Assembly: GCF_000008365.1 (NCBI RefSeq)
Contig: NC_006908.1
Coordinates: forward strand, 450,001-482,000
Length of the DNA: 32,000 nucleotides
Direction: 5' to 3'
Source of the DNA: Mycoplasma mobile 163K
Lineage (GTDB): Bacteria; Bacillota_I; Bacilli_A; Mycoplasmatales; Metamycoplasmataceae
Shown: piece after piece, positions 11,543 through 26,090 of the stretch
Layout: each line of letters starts with the position of its first letter
Position numbering within the stretch: the stretch's first letter is position 1
The notes under the pieces: model-generated
What the model was told of the DNA's origin: nothing
What the model saw: the letters and a program-made list of their open reading frames with translations, nothing else
The model's database searches: none
Made by a program: the position numbers and the translations under genes

Positions 11543-11962
11543 CTAACTTTTTGGTTTTGGTTTTTTTGTTCCATAACGTGAACGAGACTGGTTTCTATTT
11601 GCAACCCCAGCTGCATCTTGAGTTCCACGAACAATTGTGTATCTAACTCCTGGTAAATCTTTTACTCTACCACCGCGAATTAAAACAACAGAGTGCTCTT
11701 GAATATTGTGTCCTTCGCCTGGAATATAAGCTGTTACTTCAAATCCATTTGATAGTTTTACTCTTGCATATTTACGTAAAGCTGAGTTAGGTTTTTTAGG
11801 TGTCATTGTTGCTACCCTTGTACATACTCCTCTTTTAAAAGGTGCAGGAATTTCTGTTTGTTTTTTATTTAATGAGTTATAGACAAGTGATAAAGCTGGT
11901 GAAGAAGTTTTTCACACTTTCTTTTTTCTTCCTTGAGAAACTAATTGATTGATTGTTGGCAT
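11543..11962 (-). CDS. rpsL: 30S ribosomal protein S12, 139 aa
   Basis: ATG at 11962 gives '[17 protein letters not shown]...', which joins the track ORF ('[20 protein letters not shown]...') through a TGA codon. Confidence 0.97.
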
Positions 11963-13879: not shown

Positions 13880-16398
13880 TTATTGCTTAATTTGTCAATT
13901 GCAATAATAATACTTTCAAATGAGTTGAATTTATTTAAATGAGATTTTATTAGCAAATTAGCTTGTTTGGATTTTGTTTTTAAAAATTTATAAATTATAT
14001 TTTTAATTGTTTTTAAAATAATTAAATTTTTAGGAACACTTAAAATTTCAAAAATTTCAACTAACGCATTCAATAAAAGAGTTATCGAATTTTCAAAAGT
14101 TTCAAAATCATTATTTTCTTGACAATATTCATATAAAGAACTTGAAAAAGGTCTTGTTATTCTGAAAAGATATTTTCTAGATTTAAAAACATCAAAAGCA
14201 TTTAAAGTATTTAATTCAGAATTAAATGTTCTTGTATTTAGTAAATATTTTTTAACAAAAGGATTTTTAGCTAAGTAATACATCAAGAACTTAACATCTT
14301 TAAAATCTTTTATAGATTCAGTGATAGCTGATAAATATTTAAAAAATAATTTATAGTTTTGTTTTATGTATTTTTTTGCAATATTGGCTCGATTAAATTT
14401 ACCATTTAAGGGGTATTTCAATTCCAAACTAACATAATCTAAAAATTTGAAAATTAATTCTTTTAAATGATTATTATTTATTAAAAACCATAAAGTAAAA
14501 AGCAAATTTTTTTCTTGAATTTTATATTTAAAATTGTTCAAAATTAATTGATCAATTTCTAATTTTATTTTTTCAGTATTTAATAGTGAATCAAAAAGTT
14601 CGAATAAATCTATCAAAAATTGTTTTACATATTTTTCTGAAAAATTTGCTAAAAAATTTATGTAATTATCAATCTTACTAAACTCTAAATAATGATCAAA
14701 AAGAATAGAAGATAATTTTTTTAAAAATAAAACAAAAGAATTTGAACTTACAATTAAATTATATAATGACTTTACTGTTTCAAAATCGGCTTTTGTAGAA
14801 AGGTTTTTTACATATGATTCAATAAATTTTTCATAAAAAATTTTTGTTAAATTTTGATCATTCAATAAAATAAATGAAGTTTGCACAAAAGTATTTTTTA
14901 TTAATGAATTATTATTTTTCAAAAAATCATCTTTATAAAAATAATTCAAAAATCTATAATAAGTTTCTTTATTAGAAAGATTTTTAATTATTATTTTTTT
15001 GAAGATTTTTAAATCTAAAAAATCTCCAATTTTTTTTGAAGAAAAAGGATAGAAATCAATCGAATTTTGAATATTTTGAAAAATTTCTTCAATTAAATTG
15101 CTATCTAAAATTACTTTTGCTAATTTAATATAATTATTATTTTCTTCTAAAAAAAATTTTATTTTCATAGCTAAATTTTCATTTCATTTTTCTAAATATG
15201 AAACAAGCAATTGAAAATATTTGTATAAAAATTTTTCATTTACCAAAAATAAAATTGTTAAAATTTTTTTTAAAACAATTTTTTGACTAAATGGTAATAG
15301 AATTTTTTCTTCTGAATTAAAAGATTCTAATTCTTCATCATTTGAATTTGTATAAAGATCTGTTAAGGGTTTTTTGTACTTTAAAATTTGTCTAAAATTT
15401 TTGTGATCACTTAAAAAATAATTAAATGAATAATTTTTCTTGTACATTTGTGCAATTTCAAAAGAAAAATTATCAGGAAAACTGAGTTTAAAGAAAATAT
15501 CTTTTGCCATTTTTTTATAAGCAATTTGGGTTGGGTGATAATCAAAAGGTGAACGATTATAAATCTTAATATTTTTTTCAAAATTTAATTTGTCAAAAGT
15601 ATTAATCAAATATATATCTTCGAATAAAGATATTGTTTTTTCTACTATTTTATTTATATTGTTATTAATAGAATTTAATAAATTCAGTTCTGTGTTTTTA
15701 TAATTAACTTTTAATATGTTTTCAAGTCTAAAAAAGAAATTAGGAGGAATGATGTAAACAATAGCTGCGTTTGGATTTTTTTCTCTTAAAGTTTTTAGCA
15801 CTTCAAAAAGATCTACTTTAAAATCTTTTTGTTTTTTTATAAAGCTTTCTCAAAATAAATTAATATTATTTTTTTCTGAAACAAATACATTAAGTAGAAT
15901 TTTTTCAAGAGGGAAATCTCAAAAAATATCATTAAAACCTAAAGTTATTGTGATTAGATTAGCAGATTGGATTAAAGAATTAAAATTTTCATATTTTACT
16001 TCTGATTCATTTGGATTAAACTTGATTTTAAAATCATCTTTGAAAACATTAGAAAGATCAGGATCCTGATCTTTAAGTAAATTTAATTTAATTATATTTT
16101 CTGAATTTAAAAAAGAATGGTCCTTTTTTTTAGAATTTAAAAAGTACAATACATCTTTAGCTCTTGCACCTAAAAACGAGTAATTTTCAAATCATTCTAG
16201 TTTAATTTCATCATTATTTTTTAAAAAAATATCAGCTAAATACGAAGGGAAATTAATTCCTAATTTTTTGCTATGCTCAGATTTAAAATAACCTGGGTAT
16301 TGATTACTATAAAAAACTGAATAACCTAAAGAAAAATCATCTCCAATAGCAAGATATCTTATTTTTTCAGAAATACTTATAGCTTTTTTTCTATACAT
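13876..16398 (-). CDS. SGNH/GDSL-type hydrolase domain fused to a large (~500 aa) helical domain of unknown function, 840 aa
   Basis: Four track ORFs (13876..15168, 15184..15801, 15919..16149, 16192..16398) share one frame, and the gaps contain only TGA codons (each junction checked). SGNH blocks are 'YLAIGDDFSLGY' (I), 'ITLGFNDIF' (III) and 'FDYHPTQIAYKKMA' (V). Confidence 0.7.
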
Positions 16399-16461
16399 AT
16401 TCTAATTTTATATTTTTTAAAAATATTTTTAGAAAAATGTTATTTGAATATGGGGTAAAAA

Positions 16462-17184
16462 ATGAAAGAAATTATTATTTATTTTTCAATAAAATATCAA
16501 GGAGATTATTTTAAAATTAAAAATGCACTAATAAAAATGGAAAAAATTGATATAGAAAAATTAATACAATGGAACAAAAAACTTGAAAATAATAAAATAA
16601 AAGTCTTGACAAAATTTGATCAAACTTATCCAAATTCTTTTAAAAATATTAAATATTCGCCCTATGCTATTTTTTACAAAGGAAATATAGATTTGCTAAA
16701 TAGCGAGAAAATAATGCTTGTTGGAGATTCTTTTGAAAAAAGTTATGAGGATATTGAAAATAGTTTGCATCCGATAATTTTGAAAAAGACACTATTGTCA
16801 TTGGGTTTTAAAAACTTCGATGAAAAAATTTACAATTTATTTAAAAATAATAATGGAAAAATTATTAGTTTTTCAGCAAATGGTTTAATCGATCAATATA
16901 TGTTTAATGAAATTGATTTAAATTTAAATAATTTAATAATTAGTGAATACCCTTTTAAAATAAATTTAAGTAAAAGAAAACTATTTAAAAGAAATTATTT
17001 ATCAAGTATCCTTTCAGATTTTTTAATAATTTATAATTCAGAAAAAAATTCAAAGCTATTCAATTTAATAAATTTTTTCCTAAATAGTGGAAAGGAAATA
17101 TTTTGCTTTCCTCCAAAAGGAGATGATGGAAATTTAATTCTTCTTAATGATGGAGCTAATTTTGTTACAAAAATTGTTGTTTAA
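16462..17184 (+). CDS. dprA: DNA processing protein DprA/Smf (divergent, short), 240 aa
   Basis: 'YPNSFKNIKYSPYAIFYKGNIDLLNSEKIMLVGDS' and 'LIISEYPFKINLSKRKLFKRNYLSS...GKEIFCFP' parallel the DprA Rossmann-fold blocks (PPVLFxKGNxxLL..IAIVGSR; ISEyP.g......F..RNRiia). Confidence 0.75.
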   Translation: MKEIIIYFSIKYQGDYFKIKNALIKMEKIDIEKLIQWNKKLENNKIKVLTKFDQTYPNSFKNIKYSPYAIFYKGNIDLLNSEKIMLVGDSFEKSYEDIENSLHPIILKKTLLSLGFKNFDEKIYNLFKNNNGKIISFSANGLIDQYMFNEIDLNLNNLIISEYPFKINLSKRKLFKRNYLSSILSDFLIIYNSEKNSKLFNLINFFLNSGKEIFCFPPKGDDGNLILLNDGANFVTKIVV

Positions 17185-18278
17185 TTTTCTAAAGATTTGA
17201 CTTTACTTTTGTATTTAGGTATTAATTTTTTTCCTACAAAAGTTTGATAATATGCTGCATTAATAATTAAACCTGCATAAAGATAAAAAGATAATTGTAA
17301 AATTAAAATGACTAAAAACATAAAAGTTCCTATAGTCCCAAAATTACCATAATTAATTAAATCTATTGATGATAACGAACCAAAAATAACAATAAATAAA
17401 CTAGTCGGAATTGTTGTGACAATAGCTCCTGGACTAACATCTTTAAATTTCAATTTAAAGCTTGGGCTTAATTTAAATAACAATAAAAAAGCAACATATG
17501 AACTAAAAATAATTAGAATAAATGACAAAATATAAAAAATTGCAAAAAAAGTTGTTGGAGATTGAATAAGTAAATTTTCCTTTAAGATTTTTACAATCGG
17601 AATTACAACAAGTAAAACCAAAGACATAAATACACTTAATCCTAAAACAATTAAAATTCCTTTAATTCTTAAAATTAAATTATTTTCAATGTTTTGAAAA
17701 TTATATATAAGTGATTCACTCTTGATAAATTTTACAAAACCATTTGAAGATAATCAAAACGAGGATGCAAGTAAAATTATTAGTGCAACTGTACCTACAG
17801 TGCTAGATTGGAAAAATTCTTGGATTGCAGGAATAGATGATTCGATTCCTGGAATTAATCTTCCTAATATATCTGTTCTTAAAATTTCTGTAAATTCAAG
17901 ATTAAATGAAAAAACTGAAAAAACTATTGTCAATATCGGAATAAAAGCCATAAACAAATACAATGCAAGACCTGCAGGGATAAAAGCAAATTCCTTACTT
18001 TGAATCTTTTTATATGTATTATCTACAAGTTCTTCATTAAGAGCTTTGTTTTTATTTCATTTAACTCTTGATGAAGTTATTCTAAGTCCAAAATTTAATA
18101 TTGATTTGATTATTTTTTTTAATGTTTTATTTTCATAAACTGGGACAACCATTTTTGAACTTACAAATGATTTTCTATTTATTTTATCTTTAGAAGAAAA
18201 TTTGAAAATTTTAGAAATTTTCCTTGGTTTTTTCCTATTAAAATTTTCTCATCCAATTCCTAAACTTTTTTTAAACAT
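17181..18278 (-). CDS. YihY/BrkB-family integral membrane protein (formerly 'RNase BN-like'), up to 365 aa
   Basis: Track ORFs 17181..17627 and 17754..17963 and the upstream segment are in one frame through TGA codons (checked). There are six or more hydrophobic helices. 'LLASSFWLSSNGFVKFIKS' and 'FKDVSPGAIVTT' match YihY signature regions. A later start (ATG at 18152) is possible. Confidence 0.8.
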
Positions 18279-18286
18279 ATTTATAA

Positions 18287-19714
18287 TTATACTTTTTTAA
18301 ATTTTTCATCTAAATATTTTTTAGCAAGATTAAAAGATAATACAGGATTTGCTTGACCTTCTGTTTCTTTCATCACAAAACCAGTTAGATATTTCAAAAC
18401 TTTTTCAGGTTTATTTGGATATTCTAAAATAATTTCATTTTTATCTTTAGATGCTTTATTTATTAAATTAAAAATTAAATCCTCATCTGAAATCAATCTT
18501 AAATTATTTCTTGAAACAATATCTTCTACTTTTTCATTTTTAGTGAAAATTTCATTAATTATAGTTTTTAAATGTTTTCCAGAAATTTCTCCATTATCCA
18601 AAAATTTTAATGCAATAACAAATTCTGAAAAATTGAACTTTAGATCTTTAATGTGTACATTTTTTGAATTCGCTAGAGAAATTAATTCAGAAAAAAATAC
18701 TTTAGAAAGCTTTTCACGATTAGGATAAATAATTGATTCAAATACTAAAAGCATTTGAAAATCGTTCAAAAATTGTTGTACAAATTCAGATGAAATATTT
18801 TGAGATAATAATTTTTTTTCAATGTTTCATGGAAGATTTTCAACTTTAATTTTATCTATAAAATCTTTTGGAATTCTTATAAAAGGAATGTTGGGCTCTG
18901 GAATATACTTATAATCAATTGTTTTACTTTTAGTTCTCATAACAACTGTTTCATTTTTAGATTCATCAAATCTTTTTGTTTGGGATTCAATTTTTTCGTT
19001 GGATAAGATTTTTTTAATTTGTAAGTTTTTTTCAAATTCAATAGCTTTTTTAAGATTAGAAACAGAGTTTAAGTTTTTAATTTCAACTTTTTCTCCTAAA
19101 AACTTTTGTCCAAAAGGTCTTATAGAAATATTTACATCAGCTCTCAAAGATCCCTCTGACATTTTTGCATCACTTATGTCTATAAATGAAACAATTTTTC
19201 TAATCATATCAACATAATTTGCAGCTTCTTCTGCATTTGAAATAATAGGTTTTGTGACAATTTCAATTAATGGAACTCCTGCTCTATTGTAATCGACCAA
19301 AGTCTTATCATTAAGGTGAATTTGCTTTGCAGTGTCTTCTTCTAAATGAATTCTTTCAATTAAAATTTCTTTTTTCTTTCCATTTGATTCTATTGTTAAT
19401 GTTCCGTTTTTTCCAATTGGAAAATTTTGTTGTGTTATTTGAAATGATTTTGGAAGATCAGGATAAAAATAATTTTTTCTATCAAAACGCAATAAGGTAT
19501 CAATTTCCATATTTAAAGCTTTTGCAAGTTTTATTGCTTTGACAACTGCTTCTTTATTAAGTCTTGGTAGGGTCCCTGGATAAGCCACATCAATCGGATG
19601 CACCAAAGTGTTGGGTTTTTCATTAAATTTATTTGGTGCAGGAGAAAACATTTTTGTTTTCGTATTCAACTCAATATGTATTTCAATACCAATTACTGTT
19701 TCGAAAGTATTCAT
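18287..19714 (-). CDS. gatB: Asp/Glu-tRNA amidotransferase subunit B, 475 aa
   Basis: The product starts 'MNTFETVIGIEIHIELNTKTKMFS...' and has a C-terminal YqeY-like tail. Two track ORFs join through TGA codons. Confidence 0.95.
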
Positions 19715-22888: not shown

Positions 22889-24079
22889 ATGACAAAAAAA
22901 ATAAATGCAATAGTAATTCTTCAAGCAAACAAAATTGAACTAAGAATTATGGAGACATTTGAAAAAAGAATTTTTCAAATATATTCATCTAGCTGTGATG
23001 AAGATTCAAAATATTCAAAATTTATCTCTGAATCTATTATGCAAGTTAATAAAAAGTTTTCTTTGAATATTAAAGAAATTGTTTTTGTCATTTTAATTGC
23101 CAAAGGAATTAAATTAAACTTGGAAAAAAGATTTTCAACAATTGAAGTGAATGGAAAAATCTCACTTGAACACATTGAAAAATCAATTAAAATTGAAAAA
23201 GATTCTTTAAAGCAAAATGACCAAGTAGCTATTCTATCAAGACCTTATAAATATGAAGTTCTTTCTAAAAATGATCAAATCGCAACTTTCAATGAAGTAC
23301 CTTTAGATATAGAGGCAAAAGAATTAAAAACCTATAGTGTTGTATCACATATTAGTTCAAGTATTTATAATTATATTATTAACCTTTGTGAAAATGCAAA
23401 CATTACTTTAAAAACTATCGTTACAGATTCTCATTTAAACCAATATTTATTAGACAACAATAGTTTTTTAATTGAAAATAAAGAAAAATCTCTTATAAAC
23501 ATTAATGAAGAAAGTGTAACAATCAACATTTATAATAACAATGTTTTAATAGATTATCACATTTTATCTTTTGGGACAAAATATATTTATGAGAAAATTT
23601 TCAAAAATCATGATTCAATAACTTCTGAAGAGGCTAAGAAAATTTTTAGTATTTACACTGATTTTAATAAGTTCAATAGTGAAAAGCAAGTTGCATTGAA
23701 TTCTAATTTAACTTTAAAAAAATTGAATCAATATACGCTACTTTTTTTTGAAAAGATTTTTGAAGAATTTAATAAAAAATTTTCGCTTGTTTCAAGAGAT
23801 ACAATTTATTTAACAGGTGAAGGTTCTTCAATTTTAGATCTTGAAAAAATTATTAATTCTAATTTTGAAAAAAATGGAATTGATACAAAATGCCATGTTA
23901 ATAGTTTTATTACATACCAACTTCTAAATGAAGAAAAAAATTCCTACATGGCTACAAAATATATAAATAGTATGATAGATACTAAAATGGAAAATAATTT
24001 TCTAATTACAAAACCATTAAAAATATTGCAAACATATGAGTTTATTTCAAATACTTCTGAAAATTACTTAATTTCTTAA
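22889..24079 (+). CDS. Divergent FtsA-like (actin/HSP70-fold) cell-division protein, 396 aa
   Basis: It occupies the position after mraZ-rsmH. 'IYLTGEGSSILDLEKII' parallels the FtsA 'vvLTGGGa.l.Gl.el' block, and 'LININEESVTINIYNN...LSFGTKYIYEKI' parallels 'vvDIGGGTTdiavf...ipiGG..iT.DI'. The nucleotide-binding glycines and aspartates are largely lost. Confidence 0.6.
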   Translation: MTKKINAIVILQANKIELRIMETFEKRIFQIYSSSCDEDSKYSKFISESIMQVNKKFSLNIKEIVFVILIAKGIKLNLEKRFSTIEVNGKISLEHIEKSIKIEKDSLKQNDQVAILSRPYKYEVLSKNDQIATFNEVPLDIEAKELKTYSVVSHISSSIYNYIINLCENANITLKTIVTDSHLNQYLLDNNSFLIENKEKSLININEESVTINIYNNNVLIDYHILSFGTKYIYEKIFKNHDSITSEEAKKIFSIYTDFNKFNSEKQVALNSNLTLKKLNQYTLLFFEKIFEEFNKKFSLVSRDTIYLTGEGSSILDLEKIINSNFEKNGIDTKCHVNSFITYQLLNEEKNSYMATKYINSMIDTKMENNFLITKPLKILQTYEFISNTSENYLIS

Positions 24080-24085
24080 AAAAAT

Positions 24086-24115
24086 AAAAAATGCAAGATT
24101 CATCTTGCTTTTTTT
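24086..24115. terminator. Bidirectional terminator between the dcw genes (+) and the tRNA array (-)
   Basis: Stem GCAAGA (24093..24098) and TCTTGC (24103..24108) flank a TTCA loop. An A-run lies upstream and a T7 run downstream. The hairpin sits 7 nt after the ftsA-like stop and 15 nt from the tRNA-Phe 3' end. Confidence 0.7.
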
Positions 24116-24129
24116 GACCTTTATAGATA

Positions 24130-24205
24130 TGGTGGCTCCGGCAGGAATTGAACCAGCGACACACGGAGCTTCAATCCGTTGCTCTACCGACTGAGCTACA
24201 GAGCC
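24130..24205 (-). tRNA. tRNA-Phe (anticodon GAA), CCA encoded
   Basis: The reverse complement is GGCTCTGTAGCTCAGTCGGTAGAGCAACGGATTGAAGCTCCGTGTGTCGCTGGTTCAATTCCTGCCGGAGCCACCA. The anticodon stem ACGGA/TCCGT leaves loop TTGAAGC. Confidence 0.93.
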
Positions 24206-24208
24206 AAA

Positions 24209-24285
24209 TGGCGGTCCAGACGGGGTTCGAACCCGCGATCTCCTCCGTGACAGGGAGGCGTATTAAACCACTTTACCACTGAACC
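24209..24285 (-). tRNA. tRNA-Asp (anticodon GTC), CCA encoded
   Basis: The reverse complement is GGTTCAGTGGTAAAGTGGTTTAATACGCCTCCCTGTCACGGAGGAGATCGCGGGTTCGAACCCCGTCTGGACCGCCA. The anticodon stem CCTCC/GGAGG leaves loop CTGTCAC. Confidence 0.93.
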
Positions 24286-24287
24286 AT

Positions 24288-24362
<75 letters not shown>

Positions 24363-24385
24363 ATATTATTTTTTTGTGTAAATTC

Positions 24386-24414
24386 ATTATAGCAAAAATA
24401 AAAATATTTGTAAA
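24386..24414 (-). promoter_or_regulatory. Near-consensus internal promoter driving tRNA-fMet/Asp/Phe
   Basis: On the minus strand there is TTTACA (24414..24409), a 17-nt spacer, then TGC-TATAAT (extended -10; TATAAT at 24391..24386). It lies about 24 nt upstream of the tRNA-fMet 5' end. Confidence 0.7.
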
Positions 24415-24436
24415 TTTTTTTGAAATTTATTTAAAT

Positions 24437-24465
24437 AAAAAAATTCAACAAATATTGAATTTTTT
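24437..24465. terminator. AT-rich hairpin (weak terminator) after tRNA-Ser
   Basis: AATTCAA (24442..24448) and TTGAATT (24455..24461) flank a 6-nt loop, with an A6 run on one side and a T run on the other. The stem is short and contains only A/T plus one G-C pair, so function is uncertain. Confidence 0.45.
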
Positions 24466-24481
24466 ATGGTGATATAACAAA

Positions 24482-24572
24482 TGGCGGGCAATGAGGGATT
24501 CGAACCCCCGCGAGTTTTACCTCCTGACGGTTTTCAAGACCGTTCCCTTCAGCCAGACTTGGGTAATTGCCC
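24482..24572 (-). tRNA. tRNA-Ser (anticodon TGA), long variable arm, CCA encoded
   Basis: The reverse complement is GGGCAATTACCCAAGTCTGGCTGAAGGGAACGGTCTTGAAAACCGTCAGGAGGTAAAACTCGCGGGGGTTCGAATCCCTCATTGCCCGCCA. The anticodon stem ACGGT/ACCGT leaves loop CTTGAAA. Confidence 0.92.
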
Positions 24573-24576
24573 TTTT

Positions 24577-24653
24577 TGGTAGTCCTAGCTGGGATTGAAC
24601 CAGCGACCTCACGATTATAAGTCGTGTGCTCTAACCGACTGAGCTATAGGACC
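24577..24653 (-). tRNA. tRNA-Ile with anticodon TAT (UAU), CCA encoded
   Basis: The reverse complement is GGTCCTATAGCTCAGTCGGTTAGAGCACACGACTTATAATCGTGAGGTCGCTGGTTCAATCCCAGCTAGGACTACCA. The anticodon stem CACGA/TCGTG leaves loop C-T-TAT-A-A. The body is Ile-like (GGxCCTxTAGCTCAGxxGGTTAGAGC). Confidence 0.88.
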
Positions 24654-24676
24654 ACAAAGACGGTGCCTTTAGTATA

Positions 24677-24753
24677 TGGTAGCTCCGAAGAGAGTCGAAC
24701 TCTTGACCTTTCGGGTATGAACCGAATGCTCTAACCAGCTGAGCTACAGAGCC
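24677..24753 (-). tRNA. Elongator tRNA-Met (anticodon CAT), CCA encoded
   Basis: The reverse complement is GGCTCTGTAGCTCAGCTGGTTAGAGCATTCGGTTCATACCCGAAAGGTCAAGAGTTCGACTCTCTTCGGAGCTACCA. The loop TTCATAC and the GGTTCATACCC context are typical of elongator Met rather than Ile2. Confidence 0.85.
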
Positions 24754-24758
24754 ATATA

Positions 24759-24835
24759 TGGTGGAGAGGAAGGGATTCGAACCCTCTACCTCCTGCGTGC
24801 AAGGCAGGCGCTCTAGCCAAGTGAGCTACCCCCCC
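24759..24835 (-). tRNA. tRNA-Ala (anticodon TGC), CCA encoded
   Basis: The reverse complement is GGGGGGGTAGCTCACTTGGCTAGAGCGCCTGCCTTGCACGCAGGAGGTAGAGGGTTCGAATCCCTTCCTCTCCACCA. The G3:U70 identity pair is present and the loop is CTTGCAC. Confidence 0.93.
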
Positions 24836-24836
24836 A

Positions 24837-24913
24837 TGGTGAAGAAGACAGGATTCGAACCTGCGACCACTTGGTCCCAAACCAAGTGCTCTACCAAGCT
24901 GAGCTACTTCTCC
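24837..24913 (-). tRNA. tRNA-Pro (anticodon TGG), CCA encoded
   Basis: The reverse complement is GGAGAAGTAGCTCAGCTTGGTAGAGCACTTGGTTTGGGACCAAGTGGTCGCAGGTTCGAATCCTGTCTTCTTCACCA. The anticodon stem CTTGG/CCAAG leaves loop TTTGGGA. Confidence 0.92.
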
Positions 24914-25020: not shown

Positions 25021-25365
25021 ATGAACAAGAGCTCTTTAAAAAAAACTTTTTTAATAATGTTTACCATTTTTTTTGGTTTTTTAGGATTTGATAAGTGATA
25101 TTTAGGTTTTAAAAAAATGGCTTTAATAAAAGGATTGTTTTTGAGTGTTTTTGGAGTTTTTGGAATTTTCTTTTTGATTATATTTTCCTCAGTAAATTTT
25201 GGTGCTATAAACATTAACCTTTTATCTTTCCCTATAGGTTTGACTATTTTAGGTAGTATAATTATTGCAATTTACTTTTTAACCATTATGTGATATCTAT
25301 ATGACATATTAAGAGCTTTTTTAGGAAAAACTAAAGATAAAAATAAATTGAATGTTAGCAATTAA
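25021..25365 (+). CDS. TM2-domain small membrane protein, 114 aa
   Basis: The product starts 'MNKSSLKKTFLIMFTIFFGFLGFDKWYLGFKKMALIKGLFL...', which is the TM2 motif (G.lG.hrFYlG....G). It has three hydrophobic helices and two in-frame TGA codons. The track shows only a spurious antisense ORF here. Confidence 0.7.
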
Positions 25366-26090
25366 ATAATTTTTGTTCCTTTTCCTAAAATATTTTCAAA
25401 ATAAGAAGAATTTATTTTCTTTTTTAATTTATGTAGTATTTGATCTACAACTCTTGAATTATCTGTATCATTTTCTATATCTCAAACATATCGAAAAATT
25501 CTATTTTTGTCAATTGAATCTGAATCACGATTATGAAGTAAAAAAGACAAAACTAGAAATTCTTTTTTTGTTAATTCTAAAATTTTATTGTTGTAAAAAA
25601 ATTTATTTGAGACAAAATCTAAAAAAAGTGATCTATGTGAGATGAAATTACCTGATTCAAACCCTTTGAAATAGTTTTTCAAATATGATAAATTAGAGAT
25701 TTTAAAAATTTCGTAATTTTCATTATAGTACAAAATATCATTATTGATATTTCTTAAAAAAAATGTGCTATTCTCATTATATTTGTTTAATAATCAAAAA
25801 ATCTTACTATTAGGAAATAAAGTATTAATTAATTGATATTTATCTTCAGTTAAAATTTGCTCCTTATGAAAATTTTCCACAATTACAAAATTGTAATTTT
25901 GCAATGTTGCTGTAGTTAAATTGTCTAAAAAACAATAATAAACATCTACAAAAAAGTACCTTTCTAGATCTCTAAAGAAGATATTTAAATTTTCGTTATT
26001 ATTATCATTTTTGAGTACAAGTAATTTAAGATTGGGATTGCTTTTCATAAAATTATTATATAGCAAATCAATAAAATGTAAAATATTCAT
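25362..26090 (-). CDS. OmpR/PhoB-family winged-helix transcriptional regulator with a degenerate receiver-like N-terminal domain, up to 242 aa
   Basis: Track ORFs 25482..25733 and 25794..26090 are in one frame and joined through TGA codons, and the frame continues through TGA at 25482 to TAA at 25362..25364. The C-terminal sequence 'LTKKEFLVLSFLLHNRDSDSIDKNRIFRYVWDIENDTDNSRVVDQILHKLKKKI' matches Trans_reg_C (LTxxEfxLLxxLxxNxGxvxsRexLxxxvWgxxxxxxxRtvDvhIxrLRkKi). A likely alternative start is Met15 (ATG at 26048). Confidence 0.75.

Follow-up and report, generated by a model that had tools for sequence, protein, structure and literature searches.

The minus-strand gene at positions 24577-24653 of the window, by which we mean the whole 32,000-nucleotide stretch of the Mycoplasma mobile 163K chromosome that was analysed, encodes a tRNA whose body is of the isoleucine type and whose anticodon, as specified by the DNA, is TAT. 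We identify it, with a probability of about 97%, as the single-copy tRNA-Ile2(UAU) of this organism, a decoder of AUA codons that operates without lysidine. The observation is correct, but both the gene and the system to which it belongs are already known and were described between 2006 and 2014 for exactly M. mobile, beginning with the report of Silva et al. (2006; PMC1635315), who were the first to note the tRNA-Ile(UAU) gene. It is a textbook case of escape from the lysidine requirement of bacteria, and it illustrates how the joint evolution of anticodon, synthetase, and ribosome can permit the loss of an essential tRNA-modification enzyme. Small additions to this known picture are direct evidence that the TAT gene sits in the Ile2 slot of a conserved tRNA array, the numerical agreement of the window sequence with the published mass data, the finding that sequence comparison does not separate the two published origins of the gene, and a sister lineage in which its origin might be traced.

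A tRNA with a TAT anticodon and an isoleucine-type body

ARAGORN calls a tRNA-Ile with the anticodon tat at 24577-24653 on the minus strand, and the Rfam covariance model RF00005 assigns it 74.9 bits (E 7e-15), the top score among the eight tRNAs of the window, all of which lie above the threshold of 29 bits. The gene reads GGTCCTA-TA-GCTC-AGTCGGTTA-GAGC-A-CACGA-CTTATAA-TCGTG-AGGTC-GCTGG-TTCAATC-CCAGC-TAGGACT-A-CCA, so that the CCA end is encoded in the DNA. The sequence-only reading had described a clean cloverleaf in which the anticodon stem CACGA/TCGTG encloses the loop CTTATAA, and ARAGORN and the covariance model both arrive at this fold; the anticodon TAT (U34 A35 U36) occupies positions 24617-24619 of the minus strand, as the sequence and a listing of the stem pairs also show. 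Position 34 is a T; the C34 that serves as the TilS substrate in the lysidine-dependent tRNA-Ile2(CAU) is absent. All stem pairs are of the Watson-Crick type except the uppermost pair of the acceptor stem, which is a G1-U72 wobble; every Firmicute Ile1 and Ile2 tRNA that we compared has G1-C72 here.

The assignment of the body to the isoleucine type, also made from the letters alone, is upheld by sequence comparison. The tRNA is 69-80% identical to Firmicute Ile1 and Ile2 tRNAs and 56-68% identical to elongator tRNA-Met, with mean identities of 0.777 (Ile1), 0.746 (Ile2), and 0.63 (elongator Met); identities to initiator tRNAs range from 0.49 to 0.59. It possesses all of A35, U36, A37, A38, A73, C4-G69, U12-A23, and C29-G41, which reportedly constitute the identity elements of E. 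coli tRNA-Ile. An exact 28-mer that spans the anticodon had no match in the reference genome contigs; hence, no other species represented there has the same anticodon arm.

Correspondence with the published tRNA and decoding of AUA without TilS

Taniguchi et al. (2013; NAR 41:2621, PMC3575796) purified tRNA-Ile2 from M. mobile and reported an RNase T1 fragment that carries the anticodon and corresponds to positions 31-41, together with a fragment containing pseudouridine-55 that corresponds to positions 54-64. Their LC/MS data revealed t6A37 and an unmodified wobble base, with a parent ion of m/z 1218.49. The window sequence predicts the RNase T1 fragments ACUUAUAAUCG (31-41) and UUCAAUCCCAG (54-64), and for the [M-3H]3- ion of ACUUAU(t6A)AUCGp with a plain U34 we computed an m/z of 1218.489, while a version of the 31-41 fragment with C34 leads to 1218.161 (a shift of 0.33). 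Since both the predicted fragments and the parent ion agree with the data of Taniguchi et al. (2013), we conclude that the gene in the window encodes the published tRNA. The comparison with the published M. mobile tRNA-Ile(UAU) that had been proposed from the sequence thus ends in identity of gene and organism: the RNase T1 positions and the parent-ion mass are reproduced, and no difference was found.

The same ion bears on the possibility that U34 is modified in vivo, for instance to cmnm5U or s2U, and that this modification, rather than the ribosome or the isoleucyl-tRNA synthetase (IleRS), confers specificity for AUA. This idea goes back to Silva et al. (2006), and the genes mnmE, mnmG, mnmA, and iscS are indeed present in M. 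mobile. The LC/MS analysis of the purified tRNA, however, detected no wobble modification (Taniguchi et al., 2013), and the published value of 1218.49 equals the mass computed with t6A37 as the sole modification, an agreement that serves as a consistency test only. The modified forms would lie between 1223.82 and 1247.50 (s2U, 1223.82; mo5U, 1228.49; mnm5U, 1232.84; cmo5U, 1243.16; cmnm5U, 1247.50), so that the common U34 modifications tested shift the m/z by 5-29 units. We regard a modified U34 as refuted by the published mass spectrometry and accord it very little credence.

Still less credible is a reading in which the tRNA-Ile(UAU) gene is redundant or a pseudogene and AUA codons are decoded through tilS and a tRNA-Ile2(CAU) encoded elsewhere. 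The M. mobile 163K chromosome comprises 777,079 bp, of which the window covers 32 kb that contain neither ileS nor the tilS locus nor rRNA genes, and both CAT-anticodon tRNAs of the window are of the methionine type (one elongator, one initiator). The elongator-type gene at 24677-24753 was considered as a hidden tRNA-Ile2(CAU) and rejected, given its identity of 0.76 to elongator tRNA-Met vs. 0.65 to the Ile1 and Ile2 classes. At the level of the whole genome, Silva et al. (2006) detected neither tRNA-Ile(CAT) nor tilS; the latter was sought by tblastn, and the pth-ftsH locus, the site of tilS in relatives, proved to be empty. Yokobori (2013), who recorded tilS in 35 Mollicutes and its absence from M. 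mobile, and Grosjean (2014), according to whom M. mobile lacks tilS and three hemoplasmas have likewise lost it, concur with this finding. Moreover, the tRNA has been purified from cells and is efficiently aminoacylated by the M. mobile IleRS (Taniguchi et al., 2013), and its gene attains the top Rfam score of the array. The published genome analyses hence refute redundancy, and the statement of the sequence-only reading that M. mobile lacks tilS and possesses a characterised UAU tRNA is borne out by publications on exactly this organism.

How tRNA-Ile2(UAU) can function without lysidine has been addressed biochemically by Taniguchi et al. (2013). The M. mobile IleRS charges the UAU tRNA efficiently, and Arg865, which replaces the wobble-stacking Trp of other bacterial enzymes (W905 in E. 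coli, W890 in S. aureus), is critical for this activity; accordingly, the W905R variant of the E. coli IleRS gains activity on the UAU tRNA. On E. coli ribosomes tRNA-Ile2(UAU) binds both AUA and AUG, while on M. mobile ribosomes it binds AUA alone. Taken together with the genome data, these reports outline a route in which the tRNA keeps an unmodified U34 next to t6A37, is charged with isoleucine by an IleRS that has Arg865 in place of the wobble-stacking Trp, and reads AUA and rejects AUG on the M. mobile ribosome; its gene is probably transcribed within a Pro-Ala-Met-Ile-Ser unit. In this manner the tRNA takes over from the otherwise universal TilS/lysidine route, a replacement that follows from the absence of both tilS and tRNA-Ile(CAU) from the genome.

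Two components of this route could be inspected at the sequence level. In a M. marinum-like relative (contig L248), the IleRS encoded at 16142-18790 retains the Trp, its CPRCW motif aligning with CERCW890 of the S. aureus enzyme; the Arg865 change is thus not general in the Metamycoplasmataceae, and the Trp would fit retention of the lysidine route in this relative. Ribosomal protein S12 was named by Taniguchi et al. (2013) as a candidate for the ribosomal discrimination between AUA and AUG. Its gene lies in the window (11543-11962, minus strand), and it offers no obvious basis for the discrimination: in both decoding loops it matches the B. subtilis protein exactly, and the differences between the two proteins (RVAT/RVGT, PGEGHNI/PGIGHNL, VRYT/VRYH, with M. 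mobile named first) are located elsewhere. Direct A-site contacts of S12 therefore explain nothing, which points to the 16S rRNA or to other components of the ribosome.

Other bacteria have dispensed with TilS as well. The hemoplasmas M. haemofelis and M. suis possess a TAT gene after an independent loss of tilS within the Mollicutes (Taniguchi et al., 2013; Grosjean, 2014), but they belong to a different lineage, and the wobble-site residue of their IleRS is Lys or Leu instead of Trp, where M. mobile has Arg. Bifidobacterium and Neorickettsia resemble M. mobile in having a TAT gene and no tilS; however, they rely on a eukaryote-type IleRS, whereas M. mobile carries the Trp-to-Arg exchange in an IleRS of the bacterial type (Taniguchi et al., 2013). 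In the Firmicute B. subtilis, AUA decoding without TilS was achieved through a tRNA-Ile1(UAU) that suppresses the loss of tilS (Fabret et al., 2011; Kohrer et al., 2014, PMC3919564). This suppressor arose under laboratory selection through a G34-to-T change in an Ile1 gene, while the M. mobile tRNA is the natural occupant of the Ile2 slot. Outside of cellular genomes, at least 120 phage or viral contigs among the matches listed (L002-L081) contain the pattern GGTTAGAGC-N6-CTTATAA-N6-GGTC, which is tRNA-like with a TAT anticodon. Judged by this pattern, tRNA genes with a TAT anticodon appear to be common in phages, though they are rare in cellular bacteria.

The Ile2 slot of the array and the origin of the gene

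The tRNA-Ile(UAU) gene is the fourth of eight minus-strand tRNA genes (24130-24913) that ARAGORN reads in the order Pro(tgg)-Ala(tgc)-Met(cat)-Ile(tat)-Ser(tga)-Met(cat, initiator type)-Asp(gtc)-Phe(gaa), exactly the order given in the sequence-only reading. For comparison, we scanned metagenomes with the anticodon arm of tRNA-Phe and obtained 117 matches, all of them from Firmicutes with a GC content of 33-56% and none from a Mollicute; these served as outgroups. Four contigs (L155, L190, L162, L193) carry the order ...Pro-Met(cat)-X(cat)-Ser(tga)-Met(cat)-Asp-Phe, in which X is a tRNA with the anticodon cat. A scan of viral contigs added one array with exactly the order Pro-Ala-Met-X(cat)-Ser(tga)-Met-Asp-Phe (L249) and a nearly identical one (L250). 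The X(cat) tRNAs are 0.90 identical to each other, and since they are nearer to Ile1(GAT) (0.75) than to elongator tRNA-Met (0.63), we classify them as Ile2-type. When the M. mobile array is compared slot by slot with L249 and L250, identities range from 0.73 to 0.91, and the Ile slot is no outlier.

The shared order and the slot-by-slot identities support the view that, measured against these Firmicute outgroup arrays, the TAT gene is the positional orthologue of tRNA-Ile2(CAT). The placement of the TAT tRNA in the slot normally held by tRNA-Ile2(CAU) therefore stands, with L249, L155, L190, L162, and L193 as the comparison. Three other approaches contributed nothing to it: a degenerate pattern for the junction between Ile(Y34) and Ser yielded, in the reference genome contigs, two chance matches at Bacillus tRNA-Ser(CGA) and no arrays; a homologue search with translations of the open frames that cross the array produced one irrelevant match; and a literature search with the array order as a phrase returned nothing relevant.

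Like the M. mobile tRNA, the canonical tRNA-Ile2, whose CAU anticodon is converted to LAU by TilS, decodes AUA and resides between elongator Met and Ser(UGA), and the bodies of both are of the Ile type, with the pairs C4-G69, C5-G68, and C29-G41 in common. They differ at position 34, where the M. mobile gene has T instead of C and has no need of TilS, at pairs 27:43 and 31:39, which are C-G and A-T in M. mobile but G-C and G-C in the canonical tRNA, and at position 44, which is A in M. mobile and C or U in the canonical form.

These differences matter for the question of where the TAT gene came from. The sequence-only reading had proposed an apparent C34-to-U34 change in place within the conserved array; array position speaks for this part of its account, but the body of the tRNA displays a mixture of Ile1 and Ile2 features, Silva et al. 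(2006) proposed an origin from Ile1(GAT), and the change itself is unproven. Between the Firmicute Ile1 and Ile2 classes, the identity is 0.747. Of eight class-diagnostic positions, three (27, 43, and 44) are Ile1-like in the M. mobile gene, three (26, 50, and 64) are Ile2-like, and the two that form the A-T pair 31:39 follow neither class. With the diagnostic positions mixed in this way relative to the Firmicute outgroups, similarity of sequence does not by itself discriminate between a G-to-T change in Ile1 and a C-to-T change in Ile2, the two scenarios put forward in the literature.

Under the former scenario, a tRNA-Ile1(GAT) would have acquired T through a G34-to-T change and would have entered the Ile2 slot by duplication and replacement or by gene conversion. 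Silva et al. (2006), who put it forward, described the sequence as "more similar to tRNAIle(GAT)", and our mean identities (0.777 to Ile1 vs. 0.746 to Ile2) go in the same direction, as do the Ile1-type C-G pair 27:43 and A44 and the fact that four of the five pairs of the anticodon stem (CACGA/TCGTG) are the same as in the Ile1 stem CACGC/GCGTG. A G34-to-T change in Ile1 is also exactly how the tilS suppressor of B. subtilis arose, as cited by Taniguchi et al. (2013). The identity gap of 0.03 between Ile1 and Ile2 is, however, small against the scatter of the values, A26 and the C-G pair 50:64 are Ile2-type, and both Grosjean (2014) and Taniguchi et al. (2013) describe a C-to-U change in tRNA-Ile(CAU). 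Furthermore, the gene sits exactly in the Ile2 slot, with the order of the other array members preserved, and array position favours a change in situ because an Ile1 origin requires an extra, precisely targeted replacement event. We therefore consider an origin from Ile1 unlikely. The positional evidence is explained most economically by a C-to-T change in the resident tRNA-Ile2(CAT), through which the present gene would descend from the ancestral occupant of the same slot, and we hold this to be probable.

A third scenario combines elements of both: the gene may be the ancestral occupant of the Ile2 slot but with an anticodon arm remade toward the Ile1 pattern. The arm might have changed by compensatory evolution after the loss of lysidine, thereby restoring recognition by IleRS, or it might have been acquired from tRNA-Ile1 through partial gene conversion. 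We treat such a remodelling as a tentative proposal with the odds against it. The state of the Ile slot in the sister lineage of M. mobile described below could date the switch and show intermediate steps.

The array, its surroundings, and codon usage in the window

All eight genes of the array encode their CCA ends and were called by ARAGORN and Rfam. On the minus strand, the array begins with tRNA-Pro(UGG) at 24837-24913, which has 91% identity to its counterparts in L249 and L250, and continues with tRNA-Ala(UGC) (24759-24835; also recognised in the slot comparison), elongator tRNA-Met(CAU) (24677-24753; loop TTCATAC, 0.76 identity to Firmicute elongator Met), tRNA-Ile2(UAU), and, 3 nt downstream of it, tRNA-Ser(UGA) (24482-24572; likewise found in the slot comparison). 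An AT-rich spacer of 119 nt (24363-24481) between Ser and fMet splits the array. Downstream of it follow the initiator tRNA-fMet(CAU) with a C1xA72 mismatch (24288-24362), tRNA-Asp(GUC) (24209-24285), and tRNA-Phe(GAA) as the last gene (24130-24205).

Read on the minus strand, the spacer contains an A/T hairpin and T runs, followed by a near-consensus extended -10 promoter; the promoter scan located this site at 24414-24386 (TTTACA-17-TATAAT with a TG extension, 11 of 12 matches). The hairpin and the promoter-like site suggest, from sequence features, that the array may form two transcription units, Pro-Ala-Met-Ile-Ser and fMet-Asp-Phe. A further hairpin with T runs, GCAAGAT/ATCTTGC at 24093-24108, has the appearance of a bidirectional terminator and lies between the array and a convergent gene for a 396-aa protein.

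The initiator tRNA at 24288-24362 is unusual in its anticodon stem. The stem reads TCAGG/CCTGA and contains an A29-U41 pair, which leaves two G-C pairs in a row where a canonical initiator has three; all Firmicute initiators in the arrays that we fetched have three (CGGGCTCATAACCCG).

The genes of the window include those for RsmH, RpiB, an ABC ATPase, RecO, and the 396-aa hypothetical protein that adjoins the array; all five are identical in sequence to M. mobile 163K proteins (records AAT27866, AAT27856, and others). By its RsmH homologues, M. mobile belongs among the Metamycoplasmataceae, whose named species show ~50-56% identity. Closer to it is a sister lineage, as yet uncultured, with 68% identity in RsmH and 55% in the homologue of the 396-aa protein. 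This lineage is known only from Logan contigs of 1.7-2.1 kb (L128, L129, and L130 from SRR26596586, SRR26596549, and SRR26596559). In relatives (L124, L127, L248), the gene order is mraZ-rsmH-(a gene of ~410 aa with a weak SHS2_FTSA match)-ftsZ, and no tRNA array was found within 10 kb of their rsmH loci; the neighbourhood of the M. mobile array is hence not conserved. In M. mobile and its sister lineage, no ftsZ follows the gene for the 396-aa protein, which itself has no Pfam match, and the tRNA array comes directly next (window 22889-24130). In the sister contig L128 (1973-2090), a terminator hairpin is followed by an antisense tRNA-Phe nearly identical to that of the window, so that in this lineage, too, the array stands after the FtsA-like gene; the contig ends inside tRNA-Phe and thus before the Ile slot. 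A contig identical to M. mobile (L001, SRR29904084) and L128 end at the same point in the D-arm of tRNA-Phe, which could be due to the assembly graph or to the library type.

Next to the array, the minus-strand gene at 25362-26090 encodes a protein of 242 aa in which no receiver domain was detected and whose C-terminal part is a winged helix of the OmpR/PhoB type (Trans_reg_C, E 1e-8). Regulators of this type appear to be uncommon in mycoplasmas.

The window has a G+C content of 24%, and its 29 open reading frames under genetic code 4 use TGA 58 times and TGG four times as tryptophan codons, in keeping with UGA being read as Trp. ATA codons occur in these frames at a frequency of 25.3 per 1000 codons, which corresponds to 23% of the isoleucine codons and is nearly twice the frequency of ATG (13.7 per 1000); the abundance of ATA that had been noted from the letters is thereby confirmed. 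Highly expressed genes use ATA more rarely, with 6 of 63 isoleucine codons in EF-G, 1 of 14 in S7, and 0 of 6 in S12, and this avoidance fits decoding by a single-copy minor tRNA.
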